From the IMG/VR virus record IMGVR_UViG_2660238580_000002: a stretch of 64,000 nt of DNA. The stretch is one strand, 5' to 3'. This document shows positions 16,782-59,889 of the stretch, piece by piece (positions within the stretch are counted from its first letter, which is position 1; each line of letters starts with the position of its first letter). The notes below the pieces were generated by a model. It was not told the DNA's origin, made no database searches, and worked only from the letters and a program-made list of their open reading frames with translations. This DNA comes from a virus (Duplodnaviria; Heunggongvirae; Uroviricota; Caudoviricetes). The position numbers and the translations under genes are program-made.

Positions 16782-17572
16782 TTACGCCAGTTGTACGGAC
16801 ACGAACGCATCAGGGTCAGCCAGCAGCATCAGCGGTGCTGACTGAATCATGGTGAACTCACGCGCCGGATCGCCGGTGGTCACCCAGTTTTTCGGGTAAC
16901 GGGCAGAGGCGTTAATGCCTTCGCGCTGTGCGTCCGCATCCTGAATGCAGCCATAGGTGCGCAGACCGCGTGCCTGAGTGTTCCCCAGCACCATCGTGTT
17001 GTCCGGCAGGAAGTTCTTTTTGACGCCGTTTTCCACGTACTGTCCGGAATACACGACGATGGCCACATCGCCATACATCCCCTTATAGGACACCGCTTTG
17101 CCCAGGTCTTTCACCGCTGTCTCCAGCTCGGAATTAGAGCCACGACGGGTATCCAGCTTCTCCTTGACGGCTTTGAAGGAACGGAACAGCGCCCAGCCTT
17201 TCGGATCGAACACGATGATATTCACCACACCGCTGGCGTTCAGCGCGTAGGCTTCGATATCGTCGGTCGGGTCATACGTGGACTTGTCACGCTTGCTCCA
17301 CTCCGTGCCGCCGGACTGCGTGATGTTATTCTCCTCACTGCGGCCCATATCCACCTCAACCGGATCGAAGGCTTCACCGGTCATGGTGTATTTGCCCTTA
17401 AGCACGGCAGAAACTGCCTGCATCTCTTCGACCTGAGCAATGGCCAGCTCTTCGTCACGCATGTTCTGCATGATGATGCGACGGCGGCGGTAAGCCGGGT
17501 CCGCCAGATTCTGCGGATCTTCATCCGGCAGGCGACGCAGGGTCATCTGCGGATTCACTTCATGCTTCGGCT
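16782..17572 (-). pseudogene. E: Major capsid protein E, 3' fragment (from ...PKHEVNPQ to C-terminus), cut off from its 5' part by the satellite
   Basis: Reading frame continues lambda gpE from codon ~80 onward; no start codon or N-terminus here. Confidence 0.9.
17563..17572. repeat. Left junction direct repeat TGCTTCGGCT (att core within gene E)
   Basis: Identical 10-mer at 30000-30009; E-derived sequence stops being contiguous after it. Confidence 0.8.
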
Positions 17573-17706
17573 ACATGAGTCAAATATGAAAGGATGTGAA
17601 TGATTTGATTACGTTTTAGCTATAGAATTGAAATGGAAAATCCTTGAATGCAATACAACGTGCAATACATGGATGAAAACCATCACTCATTTAACAAGAG
17701 GAATCT

Positions 17707-18612
17707 ATGCGCTCACCCAACAGAATGCATGAACGCTCAACATTTTATAAGTATATGTCGTTGAATACCGCGAAGATTGTTCTTGATTCATGCAGCCTTA
17801 GATGGAGTTCTCCGGTCCTATTTAATGACCCTTTTGATGTTCCAAGAGAAGTTATGCCTGGTATTAACGAAATTAATATTGGCAAAGCTTTAGCCCGCAA
17901 GTTAATAGCGGAGTTGATTACCCCCAGAGAAGACATACAAAATTTAAACCCTAGAATTAGAACAATGCTAAGTGATTTCCAAAAGTCATTTCCTTTAGGC
18001 ATACCCGCAGGATTAATTGAAAGATTTCAAGAAATGGTAAACATTCCACCAGTTGGGATTGGCGCTCCTGCGGCAATACAAGAAATGAAAGATGTCTGGC
18101 GAGGAATGCTTAATAACAGAAGGATTTTGTGTTTATCTGAGAGCCCTATAATCACTCCTATGTGGAATCACTATGCCGATAAATATAAAGGTATAGTTAT
18201 CGAATTTGATTGTGTAGACTTTCTGGATAGCGCTTGGTTAATAGCCAAACCTATGAAATACACAGATAAAATGCCTCTAACTCACACTGCTGAAGGGATG
18301 GCCGAGTTGCTTTTCATGCCAGACAATAAGTCAATTGAATATATCAATAATGAGATAATATTCATAAAAACAGAAGAATGGGCATATGAAAGAGAGTGGA
18401 GAATTTCAACCTACGCTAGGCCAAATAGCACTGGTCAATATAGCGACTTAAAATTTCACCCTTTTGAGTTAAAATCTGTAATACTTGGTCCTCTTTTTGA
18501 TGCCAGCGAGTTCGATGAAGTCGCATCACTAGTTAAGATGTATCCAAGAGCGAAATTATTTAAAAGTTCATTTGGGAACGACAGAAAAATATCCATAGTA
18601 CCACTACCTTAA
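17707..18612 (+). CDS. DUF2971-like protein (uncharacterised satellite cargo)
   Basis: 301-aa ORF with motifs FYKYMS...LFNDPFD, YKGIVIEFD, EEWAYEREWR recalled as DUF2971 hallmarks; only plus-strand gene at this satellite end. Confidence 0.5.
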   Translation: MRSPNRMHERSTFYKYMSLNTAKIVLDSCSLRWSSPVLFNDPFDVPREVMPGINEINIGKALARKLIAELITPREDIQNLNPRIRTMLSDFQKSFPLGIPAGLIERFQEMVNIPPVGIGAPAAIQEMKDVWRGMLNNRRILCLSESPIITPMWNHYADKYKGIVIEFDCVDFLDSAWLIAKPMKYTDKMPLTHTAEGMAELLFMPDNKSIEYINNEIIFIKTEEWAYEREWRISTYARPNSTGQYSDLKFHPFELKSVILGPLFDASEFDEVASLVKMYPRAKLFKSSFGNDRKISIVPLP

Positions 18613-18718
18613 AAGGTCAAATGCTTTTGACAAATAAAATCTATCGCCAGTTTTACTGGCGACTTTTAAGCAACAAAGAACCACCTAAGCACTCTTCCTA
18701 CCTATGGTTTCATTTGTT

Positions 18719-19270
18719 TTAACTTCGCTGATTATCCTTGATATACCTTTCAGCCATATCTGGAATGTTATCTGAGATCTGGTAAGCTCGAATAAATGCT
18801 TTACTGACCTCCATCTTAATGAAGTCCTGATACCGTTTTTCCATGCCAGGAAACTGTCGACAGATCGCAAGTGGAAGACTATCAATGATTGCTCCAACTT
18901 CCCCAGTTAATTTCGACAAGGCATAAGTCGCAAATGCAGTGTCAATTACCTCACCTGTTTCGCTGGCATTCTTCAGTTCCTGTGCGTCGGCCTGCGCACG
19001 CGTAAGTCGATGGCGTTCGTACTCAATAGTCCCTGGCTGGAGATCTGCCTCGCTGGCCTGGCGCAGTTCTTCAACCTCCCGGCGCAGCTTTTCGTTCTCA
19101 ATTTCAGCATCCCTTTCGGCATACCATTTTATGACGGCGGCAGAGTCATAAAGCACCTCATTACCCTTGTCACCGCCTCGCAGAACGGGCATTCCCTGCT
19201 CCTGCTAGTTCTGAATGGTACGGATACTCGCACCGAAAATGTCAGCCAGCTGCTTTTTGTTGGCTTCCAT
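18719..19270 (-). pseudogene. Terminase small subunit Nu1 homologue with in-frame amber codon at codon 22
   Basis: ATG at 19270 reads MEANKKQLADIFGASIRTIQN then TAG (19205-19207) where helper Nu1 has TGG; ORF resumes at Met28. Confidence 0.8.
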
Positions 19271-19515
19271 TGTTCATTCCACGGACAAAACCAGAGAAAG
19301 GAAACGACAGAGGCCAAAAAGCCTGTTTTTAGCACCTGTCGTTTCCTTTCTTTTTAGGGGATGTTTTTAATAAAAACATTAAGTTACGGCGAAGAAGAAC
19401 GGAAACGCCTTAAACAGGAAAATTTTCACAAATAGCGAAAACCCGCGCGCCTGACGCCCCGTAGCCTGTCAGATCGCCGGAAAGGACCCGCCAGCCAGAG
19501 CGGGCCCTAATTTCA
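19271..19515 (-). promoter_or_regulatory. Satellite cos region (cosB-like conserved, cosN-equivalent divergent)
   Basis: Closely similar by eye to helper cos at 36190-36420, but the 12-mer at 19447-19458 differs from helper cosN at several positions. Confidence 0.6.
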
Positions 19516-19899
19516 TCAACCAATCAGCTTATAGCGACCATCCCGTGCATTGCGGCGTACACGCTCAATCTTGAGGCATAGCGCCGCATCTGGCTTTTTT
19601 GGGACAGGTACGCGGCAATATTCAGAAGCGCGAGGAATATTATTTATCCAGTCGATCACTTCACTTAAATACCAGGCCTTACGCCCTTCCGTAACCTGCA
19701 CACGCTCCGGGAACTCTCCACTAGCCTCAAGGTTTAGCAGTGTACGCCGACTCAGGGTTGTAATTTCCATCACCTGATTCATATCAACAAGGCGCTCGCT
19801 TAAACACATTTTGTCAGCGATAGCTTTTAATTCCTCTACAGCTGGATTCGGGTACATCATTTCGGCAATTGGCTTAAGGTCATTGTAATCATTCTGCAT
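19516..19899 (-). CDS. AlpA/excisionase-like HTH protein
   Basis: 127-aa ORF; C-terminal segment resembles AlpA-family HTH; lies next to satellite cos. Confidence 0.45.
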   Translation of the reverse strand: MQNDYNDLKPIAEMMYPNPAVEELKAIADKMCLSERLVDMNQVMEITTLSRRTLLNLEASGEFPERVQVTEGRKAWYLSEVIDWINNIPRASEYCRVPVPKKPDAALCLKIERVRRNARDGRYKLIG

Positions 19900-19910
19900 T
19901 GTATCCCCCT

Positions 19911-20252
19911 TTACACACGAGCCAGCGGCTGAACAGAAATACCTGAGCCAACAAACGCTGCAATCTTTACTGACAGTTCTTTTACAGACTCAGGCCAGTT
20001 CAGAGCATCAACATTTAAGACACCTGTCTTATAGACCTGAGCCCGTGTTTTTTTCGCGGTGTCGATTTGTACAGCGGAAACATAAACCGCTTTACCTACG
20101 CTCGAACCATCCCATACCACCAGTGCACCTGTTGCATCTTCCTGCATCAGTGGCGTAAATGCAGGAATTACCCCTTTATTAGCTGAAAATATCCCCAGCG
20201 TAGTCACCAGTGCTTCAGTGCCAGCCATGAGTTCAGTGTAATGAGTAGCCAT
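19911..20252 (-). CDS. Head decoration protein, gpD-like (satellite-encoded)
   Basis: 113 aa; aligns by eye with lambda gpD (PLM...WDG... core). Confidence 0.65.
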   Translation of the reverse strand: MATHYTELMAGTEALVTTLGIFSANKGVIPAFTPLMQEDATGALVVWDGSSVGKAVYVSAVQIDTAKKTRAQVYKTGVLNVDALNWPESVKELSVKIAAFVGSGISVQPLARV

Positions 20253-20261
20253 TGCTCCCCC

Positions 20262-21302
20262 TTAGCCAATGCGAACGGTAACAAAACGATTGATGCGGGC
20301 CGGTATTGGCTGTGGTGCTGAATGTGTCTGCACATATTCAATAGCCGGATCACCAGGTACAATATAGTTTTTCGGTGCAAGTTCGGCTTTAGTCAGCCCC
20401 ATTCGGATTAGCTCCGGATCCTGAATACCGCCATAGGCGACAATCCCCTGAAGAGCCGTATTGCCAAGCACCATCAAATCAGGATCAAGGAAATGTTTTT
20501 CTGTTCCGTCCTCGTCGGTATAACGCCCGCTGTAAACAACAATCGCAACATCGCCCATATACCCTTTAAAACTCACCGAATCACCAAGGTCTTTAAGGGC
20601 CGTTTCCAGTTCGGAATTAGAACCACGACGGGTATCCAAAGCCTCTTTTATCGCTCTGAATGAACGGTATTTCTTCCATACATTACCACCCATAATGATG
20701 ATATTAGTGACGCCCTCACTAAATTCTGCGTAGCTCTCAATATCATCATTTGGATCAAAAGTTTCTTTATCCTTACTTGACCACTCAGTACCGCCAGACT
20801 GAGTGATGATATTTTGTGGTTTTATATTCCAGTCCAGCTCATAACGTTCAATACCATCGCCCTCAATGATATTTTTCCCCGTTGTGATTGCCTGAACAGC
20901 AAGCCATTCAATACGTGCACGAATAGCTTTAGCTTGATTTACAATCGCCTGTTTAACTTTAATATTACGCGCCCCAAAAGCATTGTATTGCTCAGGTGAT
21001 ACACCAGCAGGGCGCACAGCTAACTTATTTGGATCAATGCTGCTTTTCGGCTTCATATAGCCTGGACGAATTGTTTTTGATTCGTACCCTTCGTCACGTG
21101 AAACTTTACTACCCACCATAGGAGAACAAAACGCTGCAATTGGGATATTTGGATCGTCGATTGTATCAAGAATAATATCGCGCGATTCAAACATTACCGA
21201 GCGAGTAAAAAACAAACTGGTAAACAACGCATTTAGTTGTTTTTGTACATCTACAGCATTAACCACCTGTACAAGCTGGGTAGGCGAATATAAATCAACC
21301 AT
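20262..21302 (-). CDS. Major capsid protein, gpE-like (satellite-encoded, divergent)
   Basis: ~347 aa from Met with AGAGGA RBS; C-terminal half close to lambda gpE (ITQSGGTEWS...DTRRGSNSELETA...), N-terminal half divergent. Confidence 0.75.
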   Translation of the reverse strand: MVDLYSPTQLVQVVNAVDVQKQLNALFTSLFFTRSVMFESRDIILDTIDDPNIPIAAFCSPMVGSKVSRDEGYESKTIRPGYMKPKSSIDPNKLAVRPAGVSPEQYNAFGARNIKVKQAIVNQAKAIRARIEWLAVQAITTGKNIIEGDGIERYELDWNIKPQNIITQSGGTEWSSKDKETFDPNDDIESYAEFSEGVTNIIIMGGNVWKKYRSFRAIKEALDTRRGSNSELETALKDLGDSVSFKGYMGDVAIVVYSGRYTDEDGTEKHFLDPDLMVLGNTALQGIVAYGGIQDPELIRMGLTKAELAPKNYIVPGDPAIEYVQTHSAPQPIPARINRFVTVRIG

Positions 21303-21587
21303 ACACATCCTCTTTGCATTCATTAAAAATAATTGTGGATATATGCTATCACCAATATTTGTCATGCGAATACATGCAACCGAGTGCAATGTTGTATAAA
21401 GTTTTGGGATGACAACTTCAGCGCGGATAATTAGTGTTAATATATTCACTCCCTTTGGTCGGGATTTATGTAGCATGCCGGAAAATTTATTTTTTCCGGC
21501 CTTTTTTATTGGCAATATTTAAAACGGAATATCATCTCCCCATTGCTCATTATCTCCCACTGGTGGATGGCTTCCTTGCTGATCTGC

Positions 21588-21968
21588 CTATTGTTTTGCT
21601 CTGTTCAGTGCGTCAGTAGCCTGACCCTGTTGACCTTTTTTGCCGCCCGGTCGCACCGTTCGCGCACTGATTACGCTGTCTGCGATAACCTGCCAGCCCT
21701 GCCGCGTTTCACCGTTCTGTCCAGTCCACTGGCTCACCTGCATGTTACCCGCCACGCTCAGGAGTTCGCCTTTGTGATGCTTTGCCAGCGCATCGGCTTG
21801 TCTGCCAAACGCCAGCACAGATAACCACATCGTCGCCGTTCCGTCATCTGCCTGGCTGCATGGCAAAGATACCGCCATCCGTGCCAGTGTCATGGGTGTT
21901 CCCTTGCTGGTATGTTTTACCTGTGGGTCGTCCACCAGCCGCCCGTAAGCTGCTATTTGCGCCGTCAT
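21588..21968 (-). CDS. SSB-like OB-fold protein
   Basis: 126-aa ORF with SSB-like pattern (W..VLAFGRQA..L.KG..L.V.G); weak. Confidence 0.4.
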   Translation of the reverse strand: MTAQIAAYGRLVDDPQVKHTSKGTPMTLARMAVSLPCSQADDGTATMWLSVLAFGRQADALAKHHKGELLSVAGNMQVSQWTGQNGETRQGWQVIADSVISARTVRPGGKKGQQGQATDALNRAKQ

Positions 21969-21979
21969 GCTGCCTGCTC

Positions 21980-22222
21980 TCAGGACTTAATATTGATGGT
22001 TGTCACTTCCTCCGCTTCGGCAATCTCCCGTTCGGTCAGCGTGGCAAAGTTTGCAGCCGCCGTTGTCATGAATGCGCTTATCAGTTCGGGATGTGCTTTC
22101 GCGTATCCTTCCCCGGCGTTGCGGTCTATTGCCTTAATCGCCACCCTTAGCCAGTGTTCAGCCATATCAAGGGCGCGGTAATGTGGCTTTATATGTTTGT
22201 TCAGTTTTCCTGATGTGTGCAT
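21980..22222 (-). CDS. Hypothetical protein
   Basis: 80-aa ORF between ori and SSB-like gene. Confidence 0.4.
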   Translation of the reverse strand: MHTSGKLNKHIKPHYRALDMAEHWLRVAIKAIDRNAGEGYAKAHPELISAFMTTAAANFATLTEREIAEAEEVTTINIKS

Positions 22223-22259
22223 TTTTATTTTTACCCCCTCGTTTAAAAAGTTTTTTGTG

Positions 22260-22500
22260 CACCACCACCTTGTCTACCTTGTCTACCTGATTAGTTATCA
22301 GGCCAGTAATGGCGCGGGTTTCAGAGAGGTAGACAGCCCCAAATAGCTGTCTACCTCATCTCTACCCGTCTCCTTACCTGTCTACAAAAATGGGTAGATA
22401 AGGTAGATAACAGGTAGACAGTGAAAAATAGTTATCTACCTGCATTAATACATTGAAATAAAAGTATTTTATTTCAGTCAGGTAGACAAGGTAGATAACC
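22260..22500. repeat. Satellite replication origin: ~12 iterons (GGTAGA[C/T]A core, both orientations) around an AT-rich tract
   Basis: Repeated gtctacc/ggtagac motifs directly upstream of pri-rep. Confidence 0.8.
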
Positions 22501-22511
22501 ATTGCCATTTT

Positions 22512-24263
22512 TTATAAAAACGCATCGCAATCATCAGTAGTCGTTGCGTTGGTCTGAGTGACTCCCTTAACTTTTCGCGTAATATATTCATATCCGTAAA
22601 CTTTCGCCGCTGACCTCATAGCCTTTCCGAACTCATTCACGCTCAAACATTTCCCCTTTCCTGTATATGCCATGAAGGCCATATAGACACGGTAAAGGCT
22701 GTTTCTGGTCGTGTACTTCACGGTGTCACCACCACCGCCCATCATTAGCCCACGAGCTTCCTCCAGAAACTCCAGCGCCGCGCAAAGCTCAACAACCGGA
22801 TCCGTTTGCTGCTTTATTGCCAGAGCTTCATCACCGTCACGCTGTTCCAGTAATAAAGCCCGTGCCTTTTCAGGGTCAGCAAAATTAGCCAGCAAGCGGC
22901 GGATAATTACGGGGATTTCTGCCGCTATCTTTTCCGGTAATTCCTTGTCTTTTTCGTCCTCCCTTACAATGTTGTCGAACCGGAAAATCACCCGACGGCG
23001 TGACACACCTCCGGCCCGTTCGGTAAAGATCATCGGGTCGTTATTGGTTGCCAGTACCACCGCCCTTATTATCGTCGTGAATCGCTTCTCATATTTCGGG
23101 TTAATTTCAACGGGATCGCCTCCCGTGATTTTCTTGATGCCCGTGCCTTCCCCCGTATATTTCGGCTGATCGGCAAGGACGATAAGACGACTCCCGACAA
23201 CCTGCGCGCGCCCTCCTGCATCATCGAGTGATGTCATCTCTGCGCTTACGGTGTTCTGTTTGCCAGCAAGCAGGGTGGCAATATGAGTAAATGTGCTCTT
23301 TCCGCTTCCCCCGTCTCCGGTGGCCTCAATGAACATCTGCCAGTCGTAGCGGTTCGCCATAATCATGTATAACGCGGCACATATACGCATCATCTTGCGC
23401 GGGTCTTTTCCTGCAGCATGTTCAAGCCATTTATGGAAATTTGGCGCATTATCGCGGATGTTTTCCCCTGCTACTGGTGGCGTGTACTCAATACCATTGT
23501 GCGTGGTGCTCCAGTGCTCCGGCGAGTGCGGAGAAAATTCCCCCGTTTTCAGATTAAGCACACCATTAGTGAACGGTAGCAAATCACCGGACGGCTCCCC
23601 CATGGGGGCGGCAATAACTTTTAACGCTTCCACGGCGTTATTGATTACGCGCTTGCTGAACGTGGCCCTGTGCTCTGAATAGATCGCCACCATTTCGCGG
23701 CTCAGCTCCATTGTGCTGACCGGACACCATACCCCGCCGCGCCATACGTGGACGATTTCACTTTCTGCATGAACACAAACACCATCAAAGCGATCGGCAA
23801 GTAGTTGTGCCCGCTCACTGTCTGCCATCTGTGAAAGTTGCGCCTTTTGCTTCGTCGGAAGATTAAGCACCAGGCTTTCCCCACGCTCGCATTCCTCTTT
23901 GAGTCGCGGCAACTGGTCGGATAAATCCACTGGGCTGGTGTCAGTAATCCCCGCGTATTCGTGTACGGTCTTCACTCCAGCCACAGCCAGTAACGTAACA
24001 ATCTGCGTCATGCTGTGCTCTGTGATATGTCCTGCGCGGTAAACACGCACACACTGACGATCTTCATCAATGATCCGGTAATCGGTGATGTTTTTCAGTT
24101 GCTCATCAGCCAACACGACAGGCGGCACATCGTCGGCGGCAATATGTTTACCCGCCCATTCCTGCCACTCTTTCGCATGGCTCCACGCATCACTACCTGC
24201 AAAGATGATTACCTCTGTCAGTCTGTCGCGTGGCTGTTTTTTTAAGTTCGGTGCCAGTTTCAT
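22512..24263 (-). CDS. Primase/helicase replication protein (Pri-Rep, P4-primase family)
   Basis: 583-aa ORF with P-loop GDGGSGKST and helicase-like C-terminus; adjacent iteron ori. Confidence 0.8.
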   Translation of the reverse strand: MKLAPNLKKQPRDRLTEVIIFAGSDAWSHAKEWQEWAGKHIAADDVPPVVLADEQLKNITDYRIIDEDRQCVRVYRAGHITEHSMTQIVTLLAVAGVKTVHEYAGITDTSPVDLSDQLPRLKEECERGESLVLNLPTKQKAQLSQMADSERAQLLADRFDGVCVHAESEIVHVWRGGVWCPVSTMELSREMVAIYSEHRATFSKRVINNAVEALKVIAAPMGEPSGDLLPFTNGVLNLKTGEFSPHSPEHWSTTHNGIEYTPPVAGENIRDNAPNFHKWLEHAAGKDPRKMMRICAALYMIMANRYDWQMFIEATGDGGSGKSTFTHIATLLAGKQNTVSAEMTSLDDAGGRAQVVGSRLIVLADQPKYTGEGTGIKKITGGDPVEINPKYEKRFTTIIRAVVLATNNDPMIFTERAGGVSRRRVIFRFDNIVREDEKDKELPEKIAAEIPVIIRRLLANFADPEKARALLLEQRDGDEALAIKQQTDPVVELCAALEFLEEARGLMMGGGGDTVKYTTRNSLYRVYMAFMAYTGKGKCLSVNEFGKAMRSAAKVYGYEYITRKVKGVTQTNATTTDDCDAFL

Positions 24264-24559
24264 TTTTTGCCCCTGAATGCGTTAATCATGCTTTTCATTT
24301 TCTGGATGTTTCCCCGCGCTTTTTCCCTGCTGATGGGCTTACTGCGGGGTGCGGCATATACCAGGGAAAAATCACGCCGGAACTGATAAACAGGCATCAC
24401 GCAGTCATAGCTATACCCCTCACGACGGTAAGTGATGCGCCGTTCTGCCACGCCTTTAATCGTTACCGTGCCGCCGTATTTATCGCGGTAAATATCGCCG
24501 TTCATAAATTCAGGCCGAGCGGGGCCGCTGGCAATAAAGCCAGAATTTTTCATTTCCAT
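24260..24559 (-). CDS. Hypothetical satellite protein
   Basis: 99-aa ORF, stop overlaps pri-rep start. Confidence 0.5.
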   Translation of the reverse strand: MEMKNSGFIASGPARPEFMNGDIYRDKYGGTVTIKGVAERRITYRREGYSYDCVMPVYQFRRDFSLVYAAPRSKPISREKARGNIQKMKSMINAFRGKK

Positions 24560-24576
24560 ATTATTTATTCCTCGAC

Positions 24577-24798
24577 TTAACTCGACTTATTTGATAGCAG
24601 GGCACTATTTATTGCGTCATTGAGTTTTTCTGCTGCTTCATCAATAAGTGACAACAGGCCATAAGCAATATTTGCATCTTCATTGTCATTTATGCAATCA
24701 AGCCACATATTTAATATTGCTTTTGCTGAATTATTTAAAGTTAATGAACTTTCTGCACATGCTAACAATTTAAAAAAGACTTCCCGTTCTGTATTCAT
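24577..24798 (-). CDS. Hypothetical satellite protein
   Basis: 73-aa ORF in minus-strand operon. Confidence 0.4.
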   Translation of the reverse strand: MNTEREVFFKLLACAESSLTLNNSAKAILNMWLDCINDNEDANIAYGLLSLIDEAAEKLNDAINSALLSNKSS

Positions 24799-24990
24799 TT
24801 AATCCCCCACCAGCTTACTTTCTTCCTCAATCAAAAAACTAGCGACACTTCCCGAAAGACGCGCCAGTAGGCTCGCCAGTGCGGATATATCAGCATCTGT
24901 AATTTTGTTCGGGTATACCTCAAGAAGGCGGCAAATAATTTCTGTCTGGTGCGCACGTTCAGCGGCTTCGTGTAATGTGATTTCCTGCAT
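24799..24990 (-). CDS. Hypothetical satellite protein
   Basis: 63-aa ORF in minus-strand operon. Confidence 0.4.
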   Translation of the reverse strand: MQEITLHEAAERAHQTEIICRLLEVYPNKITDADISALASLLARLSGSVASFLIEEESKLVGD

Positions 24991-25182
24991 TAATGCACCT
25001 CTTTTAATTCATACACTGCTGAAATAATGACTTGTGATAAGCCATATTCTGATGATTCGCTTCTCACCGCAGCAATAGCCGTCTGAACATTAACAGCCTT
25101 CACGTTCTGAGCGATACCAATTGTGTGGCCTAGTGGGTTAACCGCACGAGCAAATACACGGAAGGTTTTAAGCACGGCATAC
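24990..25182 (-). pseudogene. Satellite ORF body separated from its start by IS629
   Basis: Frame is open across the IS629 target site but has no ATG downstream of the insertion; the track ORF borrows IS sequence for its N-terminus. Confidence 0.4.
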
Positions 25183-25224
25183 TGAACCGCCCCGGGTTTC
25201 CTGGAGAGTGTTTTATCTGTGAAC

Positions 25225-26115
25225 TCAGGCTGCCAGATCATCGTTTCCGATGGAAGCATAATAAGCTTTTTCTGCTTCTGCCGGAGGAGTATGGCCCAGC
25301 CTTTCCAGCAATCGTCGATTGTTATACCAGTCCACCCACGTGAGTGTGGCCAGTTCCACTTCTGCACGGTTTTTCCAGCTCTTACGGTGTATTACCTCCG
25401 CTTTGTAAAGACCATTGATGCTCTCCGCCATCGCGTTGTCATACGAGTCGCCTGTACTTCCTGTTGATGCCAGTAATCCGGCTTCCTTAAGCCGCTGTGT
25501 GTAGGCCAGCGATACATACTGAGAACCTTTATCACTGTGATGGACCGTGCCGGACGGTCGACGGGCCCATAACGCCTGCTCCAGTGCATCCAGCACGAAT
25601 GTCGTTTCCATGGACGATGAGACCCGCCACCCCACGATGTATCCGGCAAACACATCAATGATGAACGCCACATAGACGAAGCCCCGCCATGTGCTGACGT
25701 AAGTAAAATCAGCCACCCACAGCTGGTCAGGTCGTTCTGCCACGAACTGACGGTTTACGCGGTCGCCTGCGGCAACGGCTTTCCGGCTGATGGTCGTACG
25801 GACCTTTTTACCCCGGAGAACACCGGCAAGTCCCATAACCGCCATGAGACGTGCCACAGTGCATCTGGCCACTCTGATACCTTCCCGTAACAACTGACGC
25901 CAGACTTTACGCACACCGTATACCTTGTGATTTTCATCGTATACGCGCTGTATCTCTTTCTTCAGCCAGTCATCGCGCTGCGCACGGGCACTGCGTTTAT
26001 CCGGATGATGTCGCTGTTGCTGACAGTGGTAATACGTTGACGGGGCAATATGCAGTTCGCTGCATAGCGGTCCGACCCCGTACTGCTCACGCAGCTTATC
26101 CAGCAGTGGCATCAT
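25225..26115 (-). CDS. IS629 transposase OrfB (DDE, made as OrfAB by frameshift)
   Basis: 296-aa [21 protein letters not shown]... Confidence 0.9.
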
Positions 26116-26438
26116 TTTTTCCAGAGGCGGTCGAACTCCGCCTTCGCAAAATAAGCGGAAGCCTGGCGAAGGATATCGTTACTGCGGCGCAGTTCACGAT
26201 TTTCACGTTCCAGCTCTTTCAGACGCTGACGTTCAGCGGTGGTGAGCCCTCCATCACCGCCCCCGGTATCCCGCTCATGCTGGCGAACCCAGACACGCAG
26301 AGTCTCCGGCGTACAGCCAATCTTTGGAGCAATGGAACAAATTGTCGCCCATTGTGAGTCATATTCGCTCTGACTTTCCAGAACCATACGGACTGCCCGT
26401 TGACGGACTTCGGGGGAAAAACGAGTATTTTTAGTCAT
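26112..26438 (-). CDS. IS629 OrfA
   Basis: 108-aa [22 protein letters not shown]... Confidence 0.9.
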
Positions 26439-26492
26439 CCTGTTTACCTCTTTCTCAGGAAGTTTAGTCTCCAGGATTCCCGGGGCGGTTCA

Positions 26493-26684
26493 TACCTCCT
26501 GACGAATACGGGCGGCAAATATCATCACGCAGCCAGTTGGGGATTGTTGGCGGGCTTCCTGTTCGCTGGCGGCCTCGATGTGTATTACGCGTGGTTGTGC
26601 GGTGCTCAGGGCGATAAAACGCCAGATGTATTTATTCAGGTTGTGCGGGTCCCGCCCTTGCGGGTGTGTGGTATGATTTCTCAT
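26493..26684 (-). CDS. Small satellite protein, last 3 codons replaced by IS629 end
   Basis: 64-aa ORF; stop codon supplied by the IS terminus. Confidence 0.45.
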
Positions 26685-26779
26685 AGCTATCTCGATACTG
26701 TTGCTATCGTTGGTGGTTAGAAGCCCGTTGGTGTTCCTAGCGCCTTCGGGCTTTGCTTTTTTAAGTGCCTCCGTGTTAA

Positions 26780-26823
26780 GGTGGTCACCTAACAGTAAAA
26801 AGGCTAATTCAATAGGTGGTCAC
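26780..26823 (+). promoter_or_regulatory. Two GGTGGTCAC direct repeats (operator-like) in the divergent promoter region
   Basis: Identical 9-mers at 26780-26788 and 26815-26823, 35 bp apart, upstream of the RHH gene. Confidence 0.35.
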
Positions 26824-27015
26824 TTGTCAACAATCAAACGCGATAAAAGTCCTAAGGGTGATGGGCAATCTCCACAATTCAGAATGCGAATTTCTCCAGA
26901 GCTAAAAGAGCAATTCGACAAAGAAGCGCAGAGCGACGGCATAAGCCTAGCCAACTGGCTTAAAGAATTAGGGCGCAAAGAGCTGCTACGGCGCGGTATT
27001 GAACCAAAAGGATAA
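26824..27015 (+). CDS. Ribbon-helix-helix (Arc/MetJ-like) DNA-binding protein, candidate satellite repressor
   Basis: RHH-like FRMRISPELKEQFDKEA...LANWLKELG; possible TTG start after AGGTGG (ATG alternative at 26884); divergent from leftward operon. Confidence 0.45.
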   Translation: MSTIKRDKSPKGDGQSPQFRMRISPELKEQFDKEAQSDGISLANWLKELGRKELLRRGIEPKG

Positions 27016-27042
27016 GAGTAATTGAAGTCAAGGAGCTAACAC

Positions 27043-27399
27043 ATGAAATACGAATTCTTCGCAACAAGTAGCAGTAGTTTGGATGTATACATAGTCACTG
27101 TATCAAACGATTCTAGCTCGCTAATCATGACTTGCAATTGTCCAGCAGGAAGTAAAGGTATTCTATGTAGACACCGTAAAGCTTTAATTACCGGAAAAAT
27201 CCGTGGTATATTCACTCCCCCAAGAAGGAATAATCCCGAAAAGTTACAAGAAGCTATAAATTTAATAACCACATATGGCATAGATAAAACATTAAAGTTG
27301 TACACTGATGAGTTAGAACGAGCAGAACAGACTTGGATAAGTGTTCGCGATAATTTGAGAGCAATGATAAACGCTCTTGTTGAACCACCTAAATATTGA
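27043..27399 (+). CDS. SWIM-zinc-finger-like small protein
   Basis: 118-aa ORF with CNCPAGSKGILCRH (CxCxnCxH). Confidence 0.4.
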   Translation: MKYEFFATSSSSLDVYIVTVSNDSSSLIMTCNCPAGSKGILCRHRKALITGKIRGIFTPPRRNNPEKLQEAINLITTYGIDKTLKLYTDELERAEQTWISVRDNLRAMINALVEPPKY

Positions 27400-27530
27400 A
27401 CTGTTCACATTGCCTATCAGTCGACAACCTCGTATTCTGATTAAGGCTAACTATATACTCACATTGGCGACCAATTCTGGTCGCCTTTATCCACCATTTT
27501 TATAACATCATAGATTAAAAGTGTTAATCC

Positions 27531-28361
27531 TTACCCCCTGAATGGAATTGATGAGGATTTAATTTCCACTGAACTAAATCCTTTTGAATCCAAGAACATT
27601 TTTATACCAGCCTCAATGAAATCATAATCGTTTGTCGGGCCAATAGTAATACTTTTAATTGGTAACTTCCTATGATCTTTATTACCAATGATGATATAAG
27701 GGATGACACCATTATTATTTATTCTGAATTGCACATCTGGTATTAGTATGCGCGGAGTAAATACCAATCTAAATTCATTTTCTTCGATAAAACTAGGATG
27801 TTTAAAAAATGGGATGTATTTAGATATAAATTGATACGTAGAGGCCATTGTTACAAAATGATCATTCTTTTCTTTAATATTAATACCATTACAAGAAAAA
27901 AACGCCCCCAACTCCTTACTCATCTTAGTAACATCGTTATTATTTGAATATATAACATCATGTGCAACACAATTTAAATAAATATTTTGAGAAAAGCTCA
28001 CAAGTTCATCCGCATCAAACTCAATGCAAACACCCTGTTTATTTCCGTAACCTCTCCACTGACTTAACTTATCGTTTTCCTTACAAAAAGAGATGCTATA
28101 AACATGTTTATCAATCCCTTTTTCTTTTTGTAACCTCCCTTTCTCATACATGTCAAGAGACTTGAGCAAAATAGTTTTCTTATCTTTTGGAATGATATTG
28201 TCATCAACTATTTTAATTGTATTTCGAAAGCATTCACATCCATGGTTAGACTCCTCTTTATCATTTAAGAAATATATGTTTGTAGCCCATAAAGAATTAG
28301 AGTCTAATATACCTTTCAAACCAAAAAGATCTGTATAATGAAATATAGCCACAATGCCCAC
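27531..28361 (-). CDS. DUF2971-like protein (second copy; cargo downstream of alpA)
   Basis: 276-aa ORF with FHYTDL...LWATNIYFLNDKEE, SQWRGYG..GVCIEFD, FIEENEFRL motifs. Confidence 0.5.
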   Translation of the reverse strand: MGIVAIFHYTDLFGLKGILDSNSLWATNIYFLNDKEESNHGCECFRNTIKIVDDNIIPKDKKTILLKSLDMYEKGRLQKEKGIDKHVYSISFCKENDKLSQWRGYGNKQGVCIEFDADELVSFSQNIYLNCVAHDVIYSNNNDVTKMSKELGAFFSCNGINIKEKNDHFVTMASTYQFISKYIPFFKHPSFIEENEFRLVFTPRILIPDVQFRINNNGVIPYIIIGNKDHRKLPIKSITIGPTNDYDFIEAGIKMFLDSKGFSSVEIKSSSIPFRG

Positions 28362-28368
28362 CTAATAG

Positions 28369-28599
28369 TTAAGTTGTTTCCCACTCACCTCGAATCCATG
28401 CCTGCACTTCTGAAAGACGATATGCAACAGCAGTGGAACCAATCTTGATCCGCTTAGGAAATTTTCCTTCCTTCTCCAGCTTCCAGCGTGTGCTGTTCGC
28501 AAGAGTGGTTAGCTCCCGACATTCTTTCTCACGGATCATTCGGTCAATGTTAGGAATGTACTCCAGACCCTTTTTATCAACAATTGCCATTTTTTTCAT
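28369..28599 (-). CDS. alpA: AlpA-family transcriptional regulator
   Basis: 76-aa ORF directly downstream of int, AlpA-like HTH. Confidence 0.75.
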   Translation of the reverse strand: MKKMAIVDKKGLEYIPNIDRMIREKECRELTTLANSTRWKLEKEGKFPKRIKIGSTAVAYRLSEVQAWIRGEWETT

Positions 28600-28600
28600 G

Positions 28601-29836
28601 TTAACCAGCCTTTTGTTTGAGGATTGTCACTTTTGAATCAGCACCTGCGATGCTATTGAGATATGTAGTCCAGAGTTCCAGAGCATCCAGTTTTTTAGCC
28701 ATAAACTTACTCCGGTTGTAAACACCTGCCACGCCAGGTAGCGCATGGCCTAACAGTTGTTCTACTACATAAAATTCAACACCGAGATCACTTAGATGAG
28801 TAGATAGCGTTCTTCTAAGGTCGTGTAGTGACCATTGTTTTTCATGGCCCAAACGTTTACCGATTTTCCCCCCAATCTTGCTTACGCTTTCTCTAATTCG
28901 CAGACTTCCCAGCACATAACCAGTATGTTTTGTCTCTTCGTGAACATCCGTTACCCACTGTCGTAGAATTTCAGGTACTGGTCTGACGATTTCAACACCG
29001 GTTTTTGAGTGTTCTTTTGGTACAGTCCAAACCCAACTTTCTAGATCCCATTCGCTCCATTCTGATAATCGGGCTTCACTCATTCGACATCCAAATACTG
29101 TACAAAGCACAAACATTTTTCGCGTGTATTCAGACATTAGTTTTAAATCAGGCTCGACAAAAATTGCCTTCCAGAGCTGGCCCAGTTCGGCTTCATCCAG
29201 AACCCGATCCCGCTTACCTGCAATCTGCCCCACATCACTCATGCGCAAATCCTTTAAAGCATCACACGTCGCGTACTGGCGTACCCGACAAAAACGAAGA
29301 GCTAATTTAGTGTCAGAAAAAACATACGCCGCCATAACTGGTGCATTACGTTTAATTCGGTCAAAACAGTCCAGCCATTCATATAGGTGAGTGTCATTTA
29401 CGGGCAAATGACCGATATAGGGAAAGATATGCTTTCGAAATCTGCCAAGCGTTACAGCATGAGTTTTACGACGCACCTTACAGTAATTTTCATACCAGTA
29501 ATTTAGTGCATCCTCCACTGTGACCGGCTTTAAGCGTTCTTCAGCCTGAATCTTAATCTGGATACGCGGATCACGTTTGTCAGCCAACCAACCACGGCAC
29601 TCGTCGCGCTTTTCTCTTGCCTGTTTGAGTGACATATCAGGATATTTACCCAACGTTAGCCAGACCGGAGCAGCCCGGCCACCTGCTAACCTGTAGAAGA
29701 AAACAAAGCTCACAGCCCCCTTAGTACTCACACGAATAGAAAGCCCCTTTCCATCAGCAATGGTGATCTGCTTTTCTCTGGGTTTCCCCAGATATCCTTT
29801 AAGCGCTTTGTCGCTCAGTTTGTTCTCGCCAGCCAT
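28601..29836 (-). CDS. int: Tyrosine integrase (P4-type)
   Basis: 411 aa from MAGENKLSDKALKGY; catalytic HDLRRT...LGH...Y region; adjacent to right att repeat. Confidence 0.9.
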   Translation of the reverse strand: MAGENKLSDKALKGYLGKPREKQITIADGKGLSIRVSTKGAVSFVFFYRLAGGRAAPVWLTLGKYPDMSLKQAREKRDECRGWLADKRDPRIQIKIQAEERLKPVTVEDALNYWYENYCKVRRKTHAVTLGRFRKHIFPYIGHLPVNDTHLYEWLDCFDRIKRNAPVMAAYVFSDTKLALRFCRVRQYATCDALKDLRMSDVGQIAGKRDRVLDEAELGQLWKAIFVEPDLKLMSEYTRKMFVLCTVFGCRMSEARLSEWSEWDLESWVWTVPKEHSKTGVEIVRPVPEILRQWVTDVHEETKHTGYVLGSLRIRESVSKIGGKIGKRLGHEKQWSLHDLRRTLSTHLSDLGVEFYVVEQLLGHALPGVAGVYNRSKFMAKKLDALELWTTYLNSIAGADSKVTILKQKAG

Positions 29837-29968
29837 TTTTAGCCCCAAAAAGCAATACAAGCTGCAATACAGAGATGATTGCAACACACAGATAACGAGG
29901 AAAATCCAGTGAAAGCGCCAGATAATCTTATTCTTTATTATCAAAGAATTAAGTGTAAAAACCAGCAA

Positions 29969-30244
29969 CTACACGAAAGCCTCAGAAAGCCATGCTAAGT
30001 GCTTCGGCTTGACATATCCCGGCGTAAATTCAGAGGTGGAGCCGCCACGGGAACGGATAACCTCACCGGAAACAATCGGCGAAACGTACAGCGCCATGTT
30101 TACCAGTCCCGGAATTTGTGAGAGATAGACTTTCTCCGTGGTGAAGGGATAGCTCTCACGGAAAAAGAGACACAGAAACAGCGGATCAAACTTAAATTTC
30201 TGCTCATTTGCCGCCAGCAGTTGGGCGGTTGTGTACATCGACAT
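29969..30244 (-). pseudogene. E: Major capsid protein E, 5' fragment (codons 1-82 fused to 9 satellite codons and a stop)
   Basis: MSMYTTAQLLAANEQKFKFDPLF...GYVKPKH then LAWLSEAFV*. Confidence 0.9.
30000..30009. repeat. Right junction direct repeat TGCTTCGGCT (att core within gene E)
   Basis: Identical to 17563-17572; E sequence resumes immediately after. Confidence 0.8.
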
Positions 30245-33747: not shown

Positions 33748-35669
33748 TCATCCTCTCCGGATAAGGCACGGGCGTAATCTGCCAGTGTTTTCTTGTTGGT
33801 TGCTGCACCATCCTCTTCCTGCAGGCTCGCCAGCAGTGCACTGAGATCCAGCTGCCAGCGGGAAATACTGATGCGCAGCGCCGCCAGCGCATAAACGAAG
33901 CAGTCGAGTGCCTCATTGCGTCGCTTTTTGCTGTCCCACAGTATTTTTTTCCTGCCATCCACCCATTTTTCGACCTGCTCTTCAGCAGTCAGCTGCTGCG
34001 CTTCGGTCAGATCAAAAATATCCGGGTTATTCGGGAAGTGAACGGCACCGGGAAGCGGTTCATCCCCTTCCGGCGTCAGTGTGAAGCGGTTATAAATCTG
34101 CTCTTTCGCGGTATCCGTACCGATTTCGGTAAGGTAAACCCCGTTTTTGTTTCGCTTACGTGGCATGCTGGCCACCGGCTTTCCGTAGACGGATGCCCCT
34201 TTAATGGGGATCACCCGGAACAGCCCATGTTTTTTCGAGCGTTCATACACAATGGTCGGGTCAATCCCGCCAGTATCCCAGCAGATACGGGATACCGACA
34301 TTTCTGCACCATTCCGGCGGGTATAGGTTTTATTGATGGCCTCATCCACACGCAGCAGCGTCTGTTCATCGTCGTGGCGACCCATAATAATCTGCCGGTC
34401 AATCAGCCAGCTTTCCTCACCCGGCCCCCATCCCCATACGCGCATTTCGTAGCGGTCCAGCTGGGAGTCGATACCGGCGGTCAGGTAAGCCACACGGTCA
34501 GGAACGGGCGCTGAATAATGCTCTTTCCGCTCCGCCATCACCTCAGCATCCGGACGTTCGCCGATTTTCGCTTCCCATGTCTCACCGAGCGTGGTGTTCA
34601 CGAAGGTTTTACGTTTTCCCGTATCCCCTTTCGTCTTCATCCAGTCTTTGACAATCTGCACCCAGGTGGTGAACGGGCTGTACGCCGTCCAGATGTGAAA
34701 GGTCACACTGTCCGGCGGCTCAATCTCTTCACCGGATGACGAAAACCAGAGAATGCCATCACGGGTCCAGATCCCGGTCTTTTCGCAGATATAACGGGCA
34801 TCAGTAAAGTCCAGCTCCTGCTGGCGGATGACGCAGGCATTATGCTCGCAGAGATAAAACACGCTGGAGGGGTCATCCGGCGTCCATTTGAGGCCAAACG
34901 GCGTCTCTTTGTCGCCAAATTTAAGATACTGCTCCTCCCCGCAGTGCGGGCAGGCAACATGAAAACGCATAAAATGCAGGGATTCACTGGCTGCACGCTC
35001 AATCTGGCAGGTGCCTCTCACTTTGGGCGTGGAGCCACGGATGGACTTTGGCCAGACCGAGCCTTCAATACGTTTGTCGCCAAGGAACGTCGGAGAGCCT
35101 TCCTGTTCAATATCCTCATCAAAGGCAGCAAGTTCATCATAACCCGCCACATCCACCGACTTTTCACGGTAGTTTTTTGCCGCTTTACCGCCCAGGCACC
35201 AGAAGCCACGACCATTGGAAAAACGCTTCATAGTGAGCGTGTTATCCCGGTGCTTTTTGCCATACCACGGAGCCAGCGCCAGCAGCGACGGAATATCGCG
35301 GATGGTCGGCTCAACGTGGGTTTTCATAAAGTTCTCGGCATCACCATCCGTCGGCAACCAGATAAGGGTGTTGCGCTGCTTATGCTCTATAAAGTAGGCA
35401 TAAACACCCAGCAGCATTTTGGAATAACCGACACGGGCAGACTTCACCACATTCACCTCACGGATGTAGTCGCTGCCCATCGCATTCATGATGGCCCGCT
35501 GAAAGGGCAGTGTTTCCCAGCGCCCTTCCTGGTATGCGGATTCTTTCGGGAGATAGTAATTAGCATCCGCCCATTCAACGGCGGTCTGTGGCTCCGGCCT
35601 GAACAGTGAGCGAAGCCCGGCGCGGACAAAATGCCGCAGCCTGTTAACCTGACTGTTCGATATATTCAC
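33744..35669 (-). CDS. A: Terminase large subunit A
   Basis: 641-aa ORF MNISNSQVNRLRHFVRAG..., lambda gpA. Confidence 0.95.
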
Positions 35670-36189
35670 TCAGCAACCCCGGTATCAGTTCATCCAGCGC
35701 GGCTGCTTTGTTCATGGCTTTGATGATATCCCGTTTCAGGAAATCAACATGTCGGTTTTCCAGTTCCGGAAAACGCCGCTGCACCGACAGGGGGATCCCG
35801 TCGAGAATACTGGCAATTTCACCTGCGATCCGCGACAGCACGAAAGTACAGAATGCGGTTTCCACCACTTCAGCGGAGTCTCTGGCATTTTTCAGCTCCT
35901 GTGCGTCGGCCTGCGCACGCGTAAGTCGATGGCGTTCGTACTCAATAGTCCCTGGCTGGAGATCTGTCTCGCTGGCCTGCCGCAGTTCTTCAACTTCCCG
36001 GCGCAGCTTTTCGTTCTCAATTTCAGCATCCCTTTCGGCATACCATCTTATAACGGCGGCAGAGTCATAAAGCACCTCATTACCCTTGCCACCGCCTCGC
36101 AGAACGGGCATTCCCTGTTCCTGCCAGTTCTGAATGGTACGGATACTCGCACCGAAAATGTCAGCCAGCTGCTTTTTGTTGACTTCCAT
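35644..36189 (-). CDS. Nu1: Terminase small subunit Nu1
   Basis: 181-aa ORF MEVNKKQLADIFGASIRTIQNWQEQG..., lambda Nu1. Confidence 0.95.
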   Translation of the reverse strand: MEVNKKQLADIFGASIRTIQNWQEQGMPVLRGGGKGNEVLYDSAAVIRWYAERDAEIENEKLRREVEELRQASETDLQPGTIEYERHRLTRAQADAQELKNARDSAEVVETAFCTFVLSRIAGEIASILDGIPLSVQRRFPELENRHVDFLKRDIIKAMNKAAALDELIPGLLSEYIEQSG

Positions 36190-36420
36190 TGTTCATTCCA
36201 CGGCCAAAAACAGAGAAAGGAAACGACAGAGGCCCAAAAGCTCGTTTTCAGCACCTGTCGTTTCCTTTCTTTTCAGGGGGTATTTTAAATAAAAACATTA
36301 AGTTACGACGAAGAAGAACGGAAATGCCTTAAACCGGAAAATTTTCATAAATAGCGAAAACCCGCGAGGTCGCCGCCCCGTAACCTGTCGGATCACCGGA
36401 AAGGACCCGTAAAGTGATAA
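36190..36420 (-). promoter_or_regulatory. Prophage cos site (cosB/cosN/cosQ); cosN 12-mer at 36367-36378
   Basis: Reverse complement contains GGGCGGCGACCT flanked by lambda left/right end sequence. Confidence 0.85.
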
Positions 36421-49862: not shown

Positions 49863-50228
49863 ATGATTGATGTCTTAGGACCGGAGAAACGCAGACGGCG
49901 TACTACACAGGAAAAGATCGCTATTGTTCAGCAGAGTTTTGAACCGGGAATGACGGTCTCCCTTGTTGCCCGGCAACACGGTGTGGCAGCCAGCCAGTTA
50001 TTTCTCTGGCGCAAGCAATACCAGGAGGGAAGTCTTACTGCTGTGGCCGCAGGAGAGCAGGTCGTTCCTGCCTCTGAACTTGCTGCTGCCATGAAGCAGA
50101 TTAAAGAACTCCAGCGCCTGCTCGGCAAAAAAACGATGGAAAATGAACTCCTTAAAGAAGCCGTTGAATACGGGCGTGCAAAAAAGTGGATAGCGCACGC
50201 GCCCTTATTGCCCGGGGATGGGGAGTAA
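49863..50228 (+). CDS. insC: IS2 InsC (OrfA)
   Basis: [26 protein letters not shown]... Confidence 0.9.
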
Positions 50229-51091: not shown

Positions 51092-51103
51092 GGGCAAATC
51101 CAC

Positions 51104-58296: not shown

Positions 58297-58390
58297 ATTC
58301 AGCATTTGTGCTTGTTCTGACAGTTTTTCTTGTTTCCGGAGAGCCAGTTGAACCGCCCCGGGTTTCCTGGAGAGTGTTTTATCTGTGAAC

Positions 58391-59281
58391 TCAGGCTGCC
58401 AGATCATCGTTTCCGATGGAAGCATAATAAGCTTTTTCTGCTTCTGCCGGAGGAGTATGGCCCAGCCTTTCCAGCAATCGTCGATTGTTATACCAGTCCA
58501 CCCACGTGAGTGTGGCCAGTTCCACTTCTGCACGGTTTTTCCAGCTCTTACGGTGTATTACCTCCGCTTTGTAAAGACCATTGATGCTCTCCGCCATCGC
58601 GTTGTCATACGAGTCGCCTGTACTTCCTGTTGATGCCAGTAATCCGGCTTCCTTAAGCCGCTGTGTGTAGGCCAGCGATACATACTGAGAACCTTTATCA
58701 CTGTGATGGACCGTGCCGGACGGTCGACGGGCCCATAACGCCTGCTCCAGTGCATCCAGCACGAATGTCGTTTCCATGGACGATGAGACCCGCCACCCCA
58801 CGATGTATCCGGCAAACACATCAATGATGAACGCCACATAGACGAAGCCCCGCCATGTGCTGACGTAAGTAAAATCAGCCACCCACAGCTGGTCAGGTCG
58901 TTCTGCCACGAACTGACGGTTTACGCGGTCGCCTGCGGCAACGGCTTTCCGGCTGATGGTCGTACGGACCTTTTTACCCCGGAGAACACCGGCAAGTCCC
59001 ATAACCGCCATGAGACGTGCCACAGTGCATCTGGCCACTCTGATACCTTCCCGTAACAACTGACGCCAGACTTTACGCACACCGTATACCTTGTGATTTT
59101 CATCGTATACGCGCTGTATCTCTTTCTTCAGCCAGTCATCGCGCTGCGCACGGGCACTGCGTTTATCCGGATGATGTCGCTGTTGCTGACAGTGGTAATA
59201 CGTTGACGGGGCAATATGCAGTTCGCTGCATAGCGGTCCGACCCCGTACTGCTCACGCAGCTTATCCAGCAGTGGCATCAT
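58391..59281 (-). CDS. IS629 transposase OrfB
   Basis: Translation identical to copy 1 OrfB. Confidence 0.9.
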
Positions 59282-59604
59282 TTTTTCCAGAGGCGGTCGA
59301 ACTCCGCCTTCGCAAAATAAGCGGAAGCCTGGCGAAGGATATCGTTACTGCGGCGCAGTTCACGATTTTCACGTTCCAGCTCTTTCAGACGCTGACGTTC
59401 AGCGGTGGTGAGCCCTCCATCACCGCCCCCGGTATCCCGCTCATGCTGGCGAACCCAGACACGCAGAGTCTCCGGCGTACAGCCAATCTTTGGAGCAATG
59501 GAACAAATTGTCGCCCATTGTGAGTCATATTCGCTCTGACTTTCCAGAACCATACGGACTGCCCGTTGACGGACTTCGGGGGAAAAACGAGTATTTTTAG
59601 TCAT
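59278..59604 (-). CDS. IS629 OrfA
   Basis: Translation identical to copy 1 OrfA. Confidence 0.9.
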
Positions 59605-59889
59605 CCTGTTTACCTCTTTCTCAGGAAGTTTAGTCTCCAGGATTCCCGGGGCGGTTCAAGTTGATATTGCAGTCAGTGTTCACAGGACAATGCAGGAGTG
59701 TATGACTGCAGCAACCGAACAGAAAATTCCCGGTAACTGTTACCCGGTCGATAAAGTTATTCACCAGGATAATATCGAAATCCCGGCAGGTCTTTAAAAC
59801 AGTTCCGTAATAAATATCCGGTTTCATTCTTATATGCCAGCAATGGCAGGGATTTGTTCATCCTTAAATCTGTCATGAGGTTAAAACAA

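Follow-up and report, generated by a model that had tools for sequence, protein, structure and literature searches.

The window analyzed here, 64,000 nucleotides of the IMG/VR virus record IMGVR_UViG_2660238580_000002 (Caudoviricetes), contains a lambda-like prophage whose major capsid gene E is interrupted by a 12.4-kb insert. We identify this insert, with a probability of about 0.93, as a Gram-negative phage-inducible chromosomal island (PICI) of the helper-embedded PICI (HE-PICI) site class E:Phage_cap_E:80, integrated site-specifically in E. A sequence-only reading of the window had proposed that a PICI-type satellite is nested in, and inactivates, its probable helper, and the match to the published HE-PICI class supports this proposal. 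The same reading overrated the novelty of the arrangement, since it was published in 2023 (Tommasini, Mageeney & Williams, NAR Genom Bioinform 5:lqad036, PMC10111431); the phenomenon and the exact site are described there, and this very element is very probably already in the literature.

On the minus strand, the stretch from 30244 to 30000 corresponds to codons 1 to 82 of lambda gpE, ending in ...TPGYVKPKH, and then runs into nine foreign codons (LAWLSEAFV) followed by a stop. The remainder of the gene (PKHEVNPQMTLRR... through the C-terminus) resumes at 17572 and continues down to 16782. Both breakpoints had been placed correctly from the sequence, as translation and joining of the flanks confirmed: removing positions 17573 to 30009 in silico gave an uninterrupted E open reading frame (ORF) of 341 amino acids (aa), 339/341 (99.4%) identical to lambda gpE. 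The insert itself (17573-29999) measures 12,427 bp, or 12,437 bp together with one core, and its G+C content ranges from 0.31 to 0.55, against approximately 0.58 in the prophage flanks. The features of the two junctions are listed below, with annotations by the Prokaryotic Genome Annotation Pipeline (PGAP) taken from Escherichia coli LST200A.

30000..30244, minus strand: 5' fragment of E, codons 1-82, ending in the core (translation; incomplete 'major capsid protein' in the PGAP annotation of LST200A)
30000..30009: core/identity block of the int-side junction, AGCCGAAGCA (sequence; same core in PMC10111431 Supp File 1)
29852..29871, minus strand: doubled arm-type motif TGTATTGCnnnnTGTATTGC, downstream of the att center (published spacing 132 +/- 2)
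17650..17669, minus strand: doubled arm-type motif, upstream of the att center (published spacing 81 +/- 2)
17563..17572: core/identity block of the far-side junction (sequence)
16782..17572, minus strand: 3' part of carrier gene E, codon 80 to stop (translation, flank joining)

Across the window, the 10-mer TGCTTCGGCT has only two copies, located at 17563-17572 and 30000-30009; chance alone would give approximately 0.15, and none of 100 shuffles contained two. The perfect 10-bp direct repeat noticed at both junctions was thus confirmed. The imperfect similarity reported for the flanks was not: beyond the core, attP and attB agree in only 2 to 3 of 10 bases per side, no more than chance would give. 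In gene orientation, the core reads AGCCGAAGCA and covers codons 79 to 82 (K-P-K-H) of gpE. Likewise, the doubled TGTATTGC motif (TGTATTGCnnnnTGTATTGC) matches the window at two places only; both copies are on the gene strand, and their distances from the att center are 81 bp (upstream) and 131 bp (downstream). A tRNA or tmRNA target was rejected, as the 64-kb window contains no such gene. In one relative (L029, E. coli ST69 O15:H18), the int-side core is AACCCAAGCA and the far-side core AGCCGAAGCA; since the two junction cores differ, their comparison suggests that strand exchange would lie inside the shared 3' AAGCA.

The founder of the site class is 11capE, an 11-kb PICI of E. coli NRG857c that interrupts capsid gene E of prophage 50icd; it has a capsid gene of its own, and its identity block measures 10 bp (PMC10111431). 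Additional HE-PICIs, 491 in number, map to 14 late-gene sites, and 201 of them are instances of E:Phage_cap_E:80; in this class, co-oriented doubled TGTATTGC motifs lie at 81 +/- 2 bp on the upstream and 132 +/- 2 bp on the downstream side of the center (PMC10111431). The insert agrees with this class in the following features. The core given in the supplementary table, 'agccgaagca', is the reverse complement of the window repeat, the target codon of gene E is that of the class, the AGCCGAAGCA allele of the identity block is among those of the published table, and the satellite arm beside int is identical to the published arm. The spacing of the doubled motifs, the co-orientation with the late operon and the gene order are shared as well. 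Compared with the founder, the integrase is identical at 409/411 aa (99.5%), AlpA at 96%, the capsid protein at 99.4% and the gpD-like protein at 99.1%, and the element is 97 to 99% identical over the int and late modules. Two entries of the published table, Eco2660.12 ('66.proP') and Eco485.12 ('64.proP'), are both exactly 12,437 bp long, the size obtained here; the att mapping that we used reproduces the published sizes for NRG857c, MDR_56 and 13E0767.

The element nevertheless differs from the founder in several respects. Its primase is just 46.8% identical and the replication module is a different one, indicating that the element is mosaic; the family has been described as mosaic, with integration, Bro/dynamic, replication and late zones in that order (PMC10111431). 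The founder carries HEPN+DUF262 cargo where the window element carries DUF2971 genes, and it retains only a 64-aa stub of the small terminase subunit (TerS) gene, being described as devoid of terS (PMC10111431), while the window copy has a full-length Nu1-like terS with an amber codon. In addition, the insertion sequence (IS) IS629 interrupts the window copy, and the founder carrier prophage is located at icd, that of the window being a Qin-type prophage at ydfJ.

The behavior of the founder supports integration as the origin of this arrangement. After mitomycin C, the composite was excised and replicated, the satellite was then excised, and the predicted attB and attP were found (PMC10111431). 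The excision product with a precisely restored attB, called for by the sequence-only reading as a check, is therefore on record in the founder strain.

Two further checks that it had suggested, recurrence of the int/att pair and occurrence of the empty site, were made in a set of 5,426 complete E. coli genomes. Of these, 170 (approximately 3%) contained the int-E junction at a coverage of at least 80%, and the 60 matches listed were full-length with at least 98.9% identity. DNA of int/alpA was found in 179 genomes (full-length in 175), and in a sample of 60 rows, all 58 full-length rows adjoined a capsid-gene fragment. The uninterrupted attB, i.e., the reconstructed E, was detected in 3,158 genomes, which favors integration. 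The junction with its core and arm motifs was found in several different carrier prophages (icd, ybhC and ydfJ). The far end of the element was variable, the DUF2971 cargo being common to only 32 genomes and the others matching only the first ~34 bp of the arm.

The gene content of the insert is that of a PICI, with int, alpA, pri-rep with an origin, a cos site and a size within 10 to 20 kb. The genes follow the order int-alpA, accessory genes and an icd-like gene, pri-ori-ssb, and capsid-D-cos-terS, and int, alpA, pri and the satellite capsid gene are co-oriented with E on the minus strand. The main features between the arms are as follows.

28601..29836, minus strand: tyrosine integrase, 411 aa (Pfam Arm-DNA-bind_3, Phage_int_SAM_3, Phage_integrase)
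28369..28599, minus strand: AlpA, excisionase/regulator (Pfam Phage_AlpA, E 3e-15)
27531..28361, minus strand: accessory DUF2971 protein, first cargo hot spot (Pfam DUF2971; weak PADLOC PDC-S31 match)
27043..27399, plus strand: accessory SWIM zinc-finger family protein (PGAP in LST200A; phrog_13130)
26490..26684, minus strand: Icd-like/repressor-like gene, 3' end struck by IS629 (phrog_6196; 'host cell division inhibitor Icd-like' by PGAP in LST200A)
22512..24263, minus strand: primase/helicase, pri (Pfam D5_N, DUF5906, Pox_D5)
22271..22497: iteron-type origin directly downstream of pri (10 TRTCTACC copies around an AT-rich stretch)
21588..21968, minus strand: ssb, single-stranded DNA-binding protein (SSB) gene with a premature stop (Pfam SSB; compared with the intact NRG857c ssb; 'internal stop' by PGAP in LST200A)
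20262..21302, minus strand: the satellite's own lambda-E-family major capsid gene, 346 aa (Pfam Phage_cap_E, E 3e-42)
19911..20252, minus strand: gpD-like head decoration protein (Pfam HDPD, E 6.7e-15)
19516..19899, minus strand: second AlpA-family helix-turn-helix protein, 127 aa (Pfam Phage_AlpA; phrog_2790; PDB 8c3t AlpA)
17707..18612, plus strand: accessory DUF2971 protein, second cargo hot spot (PADLOC candidate defense family PDC-S31, E 2e-32)

The integrase and alpA at the right junction, the primase/helicase with its iteron origin and the cos site in the insert had all been recognized from the letters, and the domain matches, together with a lambda-type cos region, uphold these calls. 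The satellite's own E-like capsid, gpD-like and Nu1-like terS genes and the interruption by IS629 had been overlooked. Ten of the 11 window matches to TRTCTACC fall within the 227-bp origin at 22271-22497, with approximately 2 expected by chance. Small conserved ORFs, including one of DUF4222, follow the Icd-like gene ahead of pri. The satellite capsid protein is 42% identical to carrier E, and its gene has AGCCGAAAAG at the homologous codons where E has AGCCGAAGCA; it thus lacks the 10-bp core and offers no target for self-integration. No lysis or tail genes were found in the 12.4-kb element. In sampled relatives, the first cargo hot spot is occupied by Abi or TIR genes and the second by HEPN+DUF262 or Abi genes. 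Such exchangeable cargo is typical of satellite defense hot spots.

The element thus shares with Gram-negative PICIs such as EcCICFT073 (Fillol-Salom 2018 ISME J; 2019 Mol Cell) the int-alpA pair, pri and an origin located downstream of it, a cos of the lambda type, the optional E-family capsid gene, the 10- to 20-kb size and lambdoid helpers. Unlike it, however, these PICIs integrate in chromosomal genes and meet their helper in trans only. They also redirect packaging by means of Rpp together with a private cosB, their cosN staying close to that of lambda, whereas the window element combines a helper-type cosB and TerS DNA-binding domain with a private cosN. The residual novelty of the window lies in such observations on cosN and TerS, for which the relevant features are listed here.

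36367..36378, minus strand: carrier cosN, lambda-type GGGCGGCGACCT, upstream of nohA/Nu1 (35644-36189)
19271..19490, minus strand: satellite cos region, cosQ-cosN-cosB (cosN 12-mer GGGCGTCAGGCG at 19448-19459)
18719..19270, minus strand: Nu1-like terS pseudogene, amber codon at 19205-19207 (residues 1-102 of helper Nu1 type, C-terminus divergent)

A 558-bp segment of the satellite (18933-19490), comprising cos and the first 102 terS codons, is 92% identical to the cos/nohA segment of the carrier (35852-36409), and cosQ and cosB are each approximately 92 to 95% identical between the two. In contrast, cosN differs in 5 of its 12 bases (GGGCGTCAGGCG in the satellite versus GGGCGGCGACCT in the carrier). 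The same contrast was seen in eight of eight satellite/carrier pairs, i.e., in the window and seven others, founder included (also L001, L022 and L027-L031), and the HE-PICI paper makes no mention of it (PMC10111431). The satellite-type cosN is identical in 15 IMG/VR contigs, some of which are true lambda-like prophages. One of these (L005, IMGVR_UViG_2913112809_000002, position 1261) carries the satellite allele followed by Nu1, A, B and an intact E, its A being 99.4% identical to lambda gpA, and in two others (L013 and L019) the allele is again followed by Nu1; in all three, Nu1 is 98 to 99% identical to that of lambda. Mutational decay as the source of the variant was rejected, given its identity in the eight satellites and the 15 contigs, lambda-like prophages among them. 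A third allele, GGGCGGAAGGCG, was found in phages PhiR46_1 and YDC107_1 (L020/L021, position ~3048). Lambda-like prophages and phages thus display at least three cosN alleles alongside nearly identical terminases.

The terS gene of the satellite is chimeric. Residues 1 to 102, the DNA-binding half, are near-identical to carrier and lambda Nu1, with a single difference in an intact relative, while residues 103 to 183 are divergent (approximately 35% identical). In TerS of the window subtype, the divergent half is the half that binds the large terminase subunit (TerL). Intact homologues occur in L023-L025 (3320-3871). Among relatives, the gene downstream of cos encodes either such a chimeric TerS or a fully divergent Nu1-like protein beside a different cosB, for which no PDB sequence match was obtained; in the founder, the 64-aa stub takes this place. 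We rejected the satellite TerS as a form of Rpp, for its match to RppC was marginal (E 0.04), in contrast to strong matches with lambda Nu1 structures. We tentatively raise the possibility that the lineage keeps a private cosN, with cosQ and cosB remaining close to those of the helper, and that this allele, together with the TerS that many members encode, serves as a mode of packaging redirection or end-incompatibility distinct from Rpp, although we hold this to be less probable than its opposite. If it were so, the cohesive ends of the satellite could not anneal to those of the helper, and a cos site within the unexcised composite could not give rise to viable hybrid genomes.

The cosN contrast also bears on the question of which phage packages the satellite. 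The carrier might serve only as a landing pad and induction sensor, with packaging by another lambdoid lineage that shares the satellite cosN allele, as the consistent mismatch in all eight pairs, the occurrence of this allele in true lambda-like prophage contigs (L005, L013 and L019) and the failure to recover virions from the founder strain (PMC10111431) would lead one to expect. We regard this as rather unlikely. The cosQ and cosB sequences of satellite and carrier remain closely similar, and lambda TerL has little sequence specificity of its own, being positioned through TerS bound at cosB (Feiss review, PMC9026076), so that the carrier terminase, by assumption, probably cuts the satellite cos. 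Moreover, the gpA of phages that carry the variant cosN matches lambda gpA at 99.4% identity, so the same terminase probably cuts both alleles.

The satellite could also be a capsid-forming PICI (cf-PICI), assembling heads of its own and stealing nothing but tails, given that it encodes a major capsid protein, a decoration protein and TerS. These three genes, terS being a pseudogene, nevertheless make up the whole head module: the 12.4 kb contain no portal, prohead protease/scaffold, head-tail connector or TerL/HNH gene. Comparable PICI capsid genes are dispensable for transfer, as PMC10111431 states in citing Fillol-Salom 2018. We therefore consider a cf-PICI very improbable.

The integrase architecture, the AlpA-type regulator, the D5_N/P4-alpha-like primase and the Icd-like gene, along with cos-dependent packaging, are features shared with P4, the satellite of P2, and might point to a P4-like satellite whose helper is of the P2 type and whose position in a lambdoid capsid gene is fortuitous. 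However, the cos site is of the lambda type and not of the 19-nucleotide P2/P4 type, and the capsid, decoration and TerS genes belong to the lambda E/D/Nu1 family. No sid, psu or delta match was obtained with Pfam among 10 ORFs scanned, and the only Rfam match in the element was the ALIL pseudoknot of IS629, with no C4/isrK (P4 CI RNA) at E <= 0.1. Thus, none of the P2-type cos, Sid, CI RNA and tRNA-gene integration that distinguish P4 was found in the window element, and this, together with its identity of 97 to 99% to the published HE-PICI over the int and late modules, effectively refutes a P4-like origin. An illegitimate rearrangement or assembly artifact, in favor of which speaks nothing except that the window is one single sequence, is refuted by the recurrence of junction, core and arm motifs in 170 independent complete genomes with several carriers, and by the precise restoration of E upon joining of the flanks.

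Under the assignment to the HE-PICI class, the life cycle of the satellite can be pictured as follows. The tyrosine integrase would recombine the 10-bp identity block AGCCGAAGCA between gene E and a satellite attP in which the two doubled TGTATTGC motifs flank the center, at 81 bp on the upstream and ~132 bp on the downstream side. A promoter/terminator scan from the E fragment to int gave nothing above chance, and since the gene strand between them has no terminator-like site, late transcription of the carrier may read through the E fragment into int-alpA. Excision late after induction would then restore E, as in the founder strain (PMC10111431), and the satellite would replicate from its own primase and iteron origin. 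Packaging would proceed via the lambda-type cos by the helper terminase, possibly aided or redirected by the satellite's own Nu1-like TerS, and defense-type cargo would be carried at the two hot spots. By residing in the helper capsid gene, the satellite would couple its excision to late transcription of the helper and delay production of the helper capsid. To the published class the window adds a further, decayed example with a Qin-type carrier, the recurrence of the junction in approximately 3% of complete E. coli genomes, and the consistent satellite/carrier difference in cosN together with the TerS variants, which bear on the mode of satellite packaging.

Several points weigh against the assignment. 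Excision, transfer and helper dependence are predictions for this strain, made from its DNA. Neither helper nor satellite virions were recovered from the founder (PMC10111431), so that packaging by the carrier is a presumption for the class. The 5/12 mismatch of cosN in all eight pairs makes packaging compatibility an assumption. Finally, a Pfam scan of 10 selected ORFs of the element detected no Bro-N domain, while the HE-PICI paper describes a 'Bro zone'.

The window is colinear with E. coli LST200A at 99.8 to 100% identity. In LST200A, PGAP annotates a lambdoid prophage of Qin type, full-length and bounded by rspB and a truncated ydfJ, with int, xis, exo, dicB, dicA/dicC, relBE, hokD, Q, lysis genes and cspI, and with the late genes nohA(Nu1)-A-W-B-C-D-E...J-stf-tfaQ-pinQ. 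The ydfJ gene encodes a major facilitator superfamily (MFS) transporter, which is presumably the reason for the 'proP' site label in the table of Tommasini et al.

Both the satellite and its carrier show signs of decay. The ssb gene stops 23 codons early compared with the intact ssb of NRG857c, with loss of the acidic C-terminal tip (...DDIPF), and the same stop is present in LST200A. The acidic tip of SSB binds partner proteins. In terS, codon 22 (19205-19207) is changed from TGG to TAG, while the 183-aa gene is uninterrupted in three of the four relatives sampled; the amber codon as a conserved feature, for instance for internal restart, was rejected on this basis. Given these lesions and the IS629 insertion, autonomous replication and transfer of the window copy are probably impaired. 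Nevertheless, int, AlpA, both att cores and both arm motifs are intact, and its excision may therefore still be possible. The carrier prophage is probably defective, and judging from its sequence, it is doubtful that it could act as a helper today; as copy and carrier are ridden with insertion sequences and partly pseudogenized, the term "helper" may be just historical in this strain.

Three insertions set the window apart from LST200A.

25183..26492, minus strand: IS629 in the satellite, 1,310 bp, TAC target duplication (missing from the otherwise 99.9%-identical LST200A copy; ALIL pseudoknot)
58349..59658: second IS629, in ydfD of the carrier early region, AGT duplication (100% identical to the satellite IS629; missing in LST200A)
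~49774-51101: IS3-family element, 1.3 kb (ORFs of 136 and 301 aa; HTH_Tnp_1 and rve)

The satellite IS629 falls within the final codons of the icd-like gene; the small-ORF/DUF4222/pri genes follow directly downstream. The IS3-family element, possibly IS2, adjoins the remnants of an IS66-family element and an ISNCY fragment in the carrier early region.

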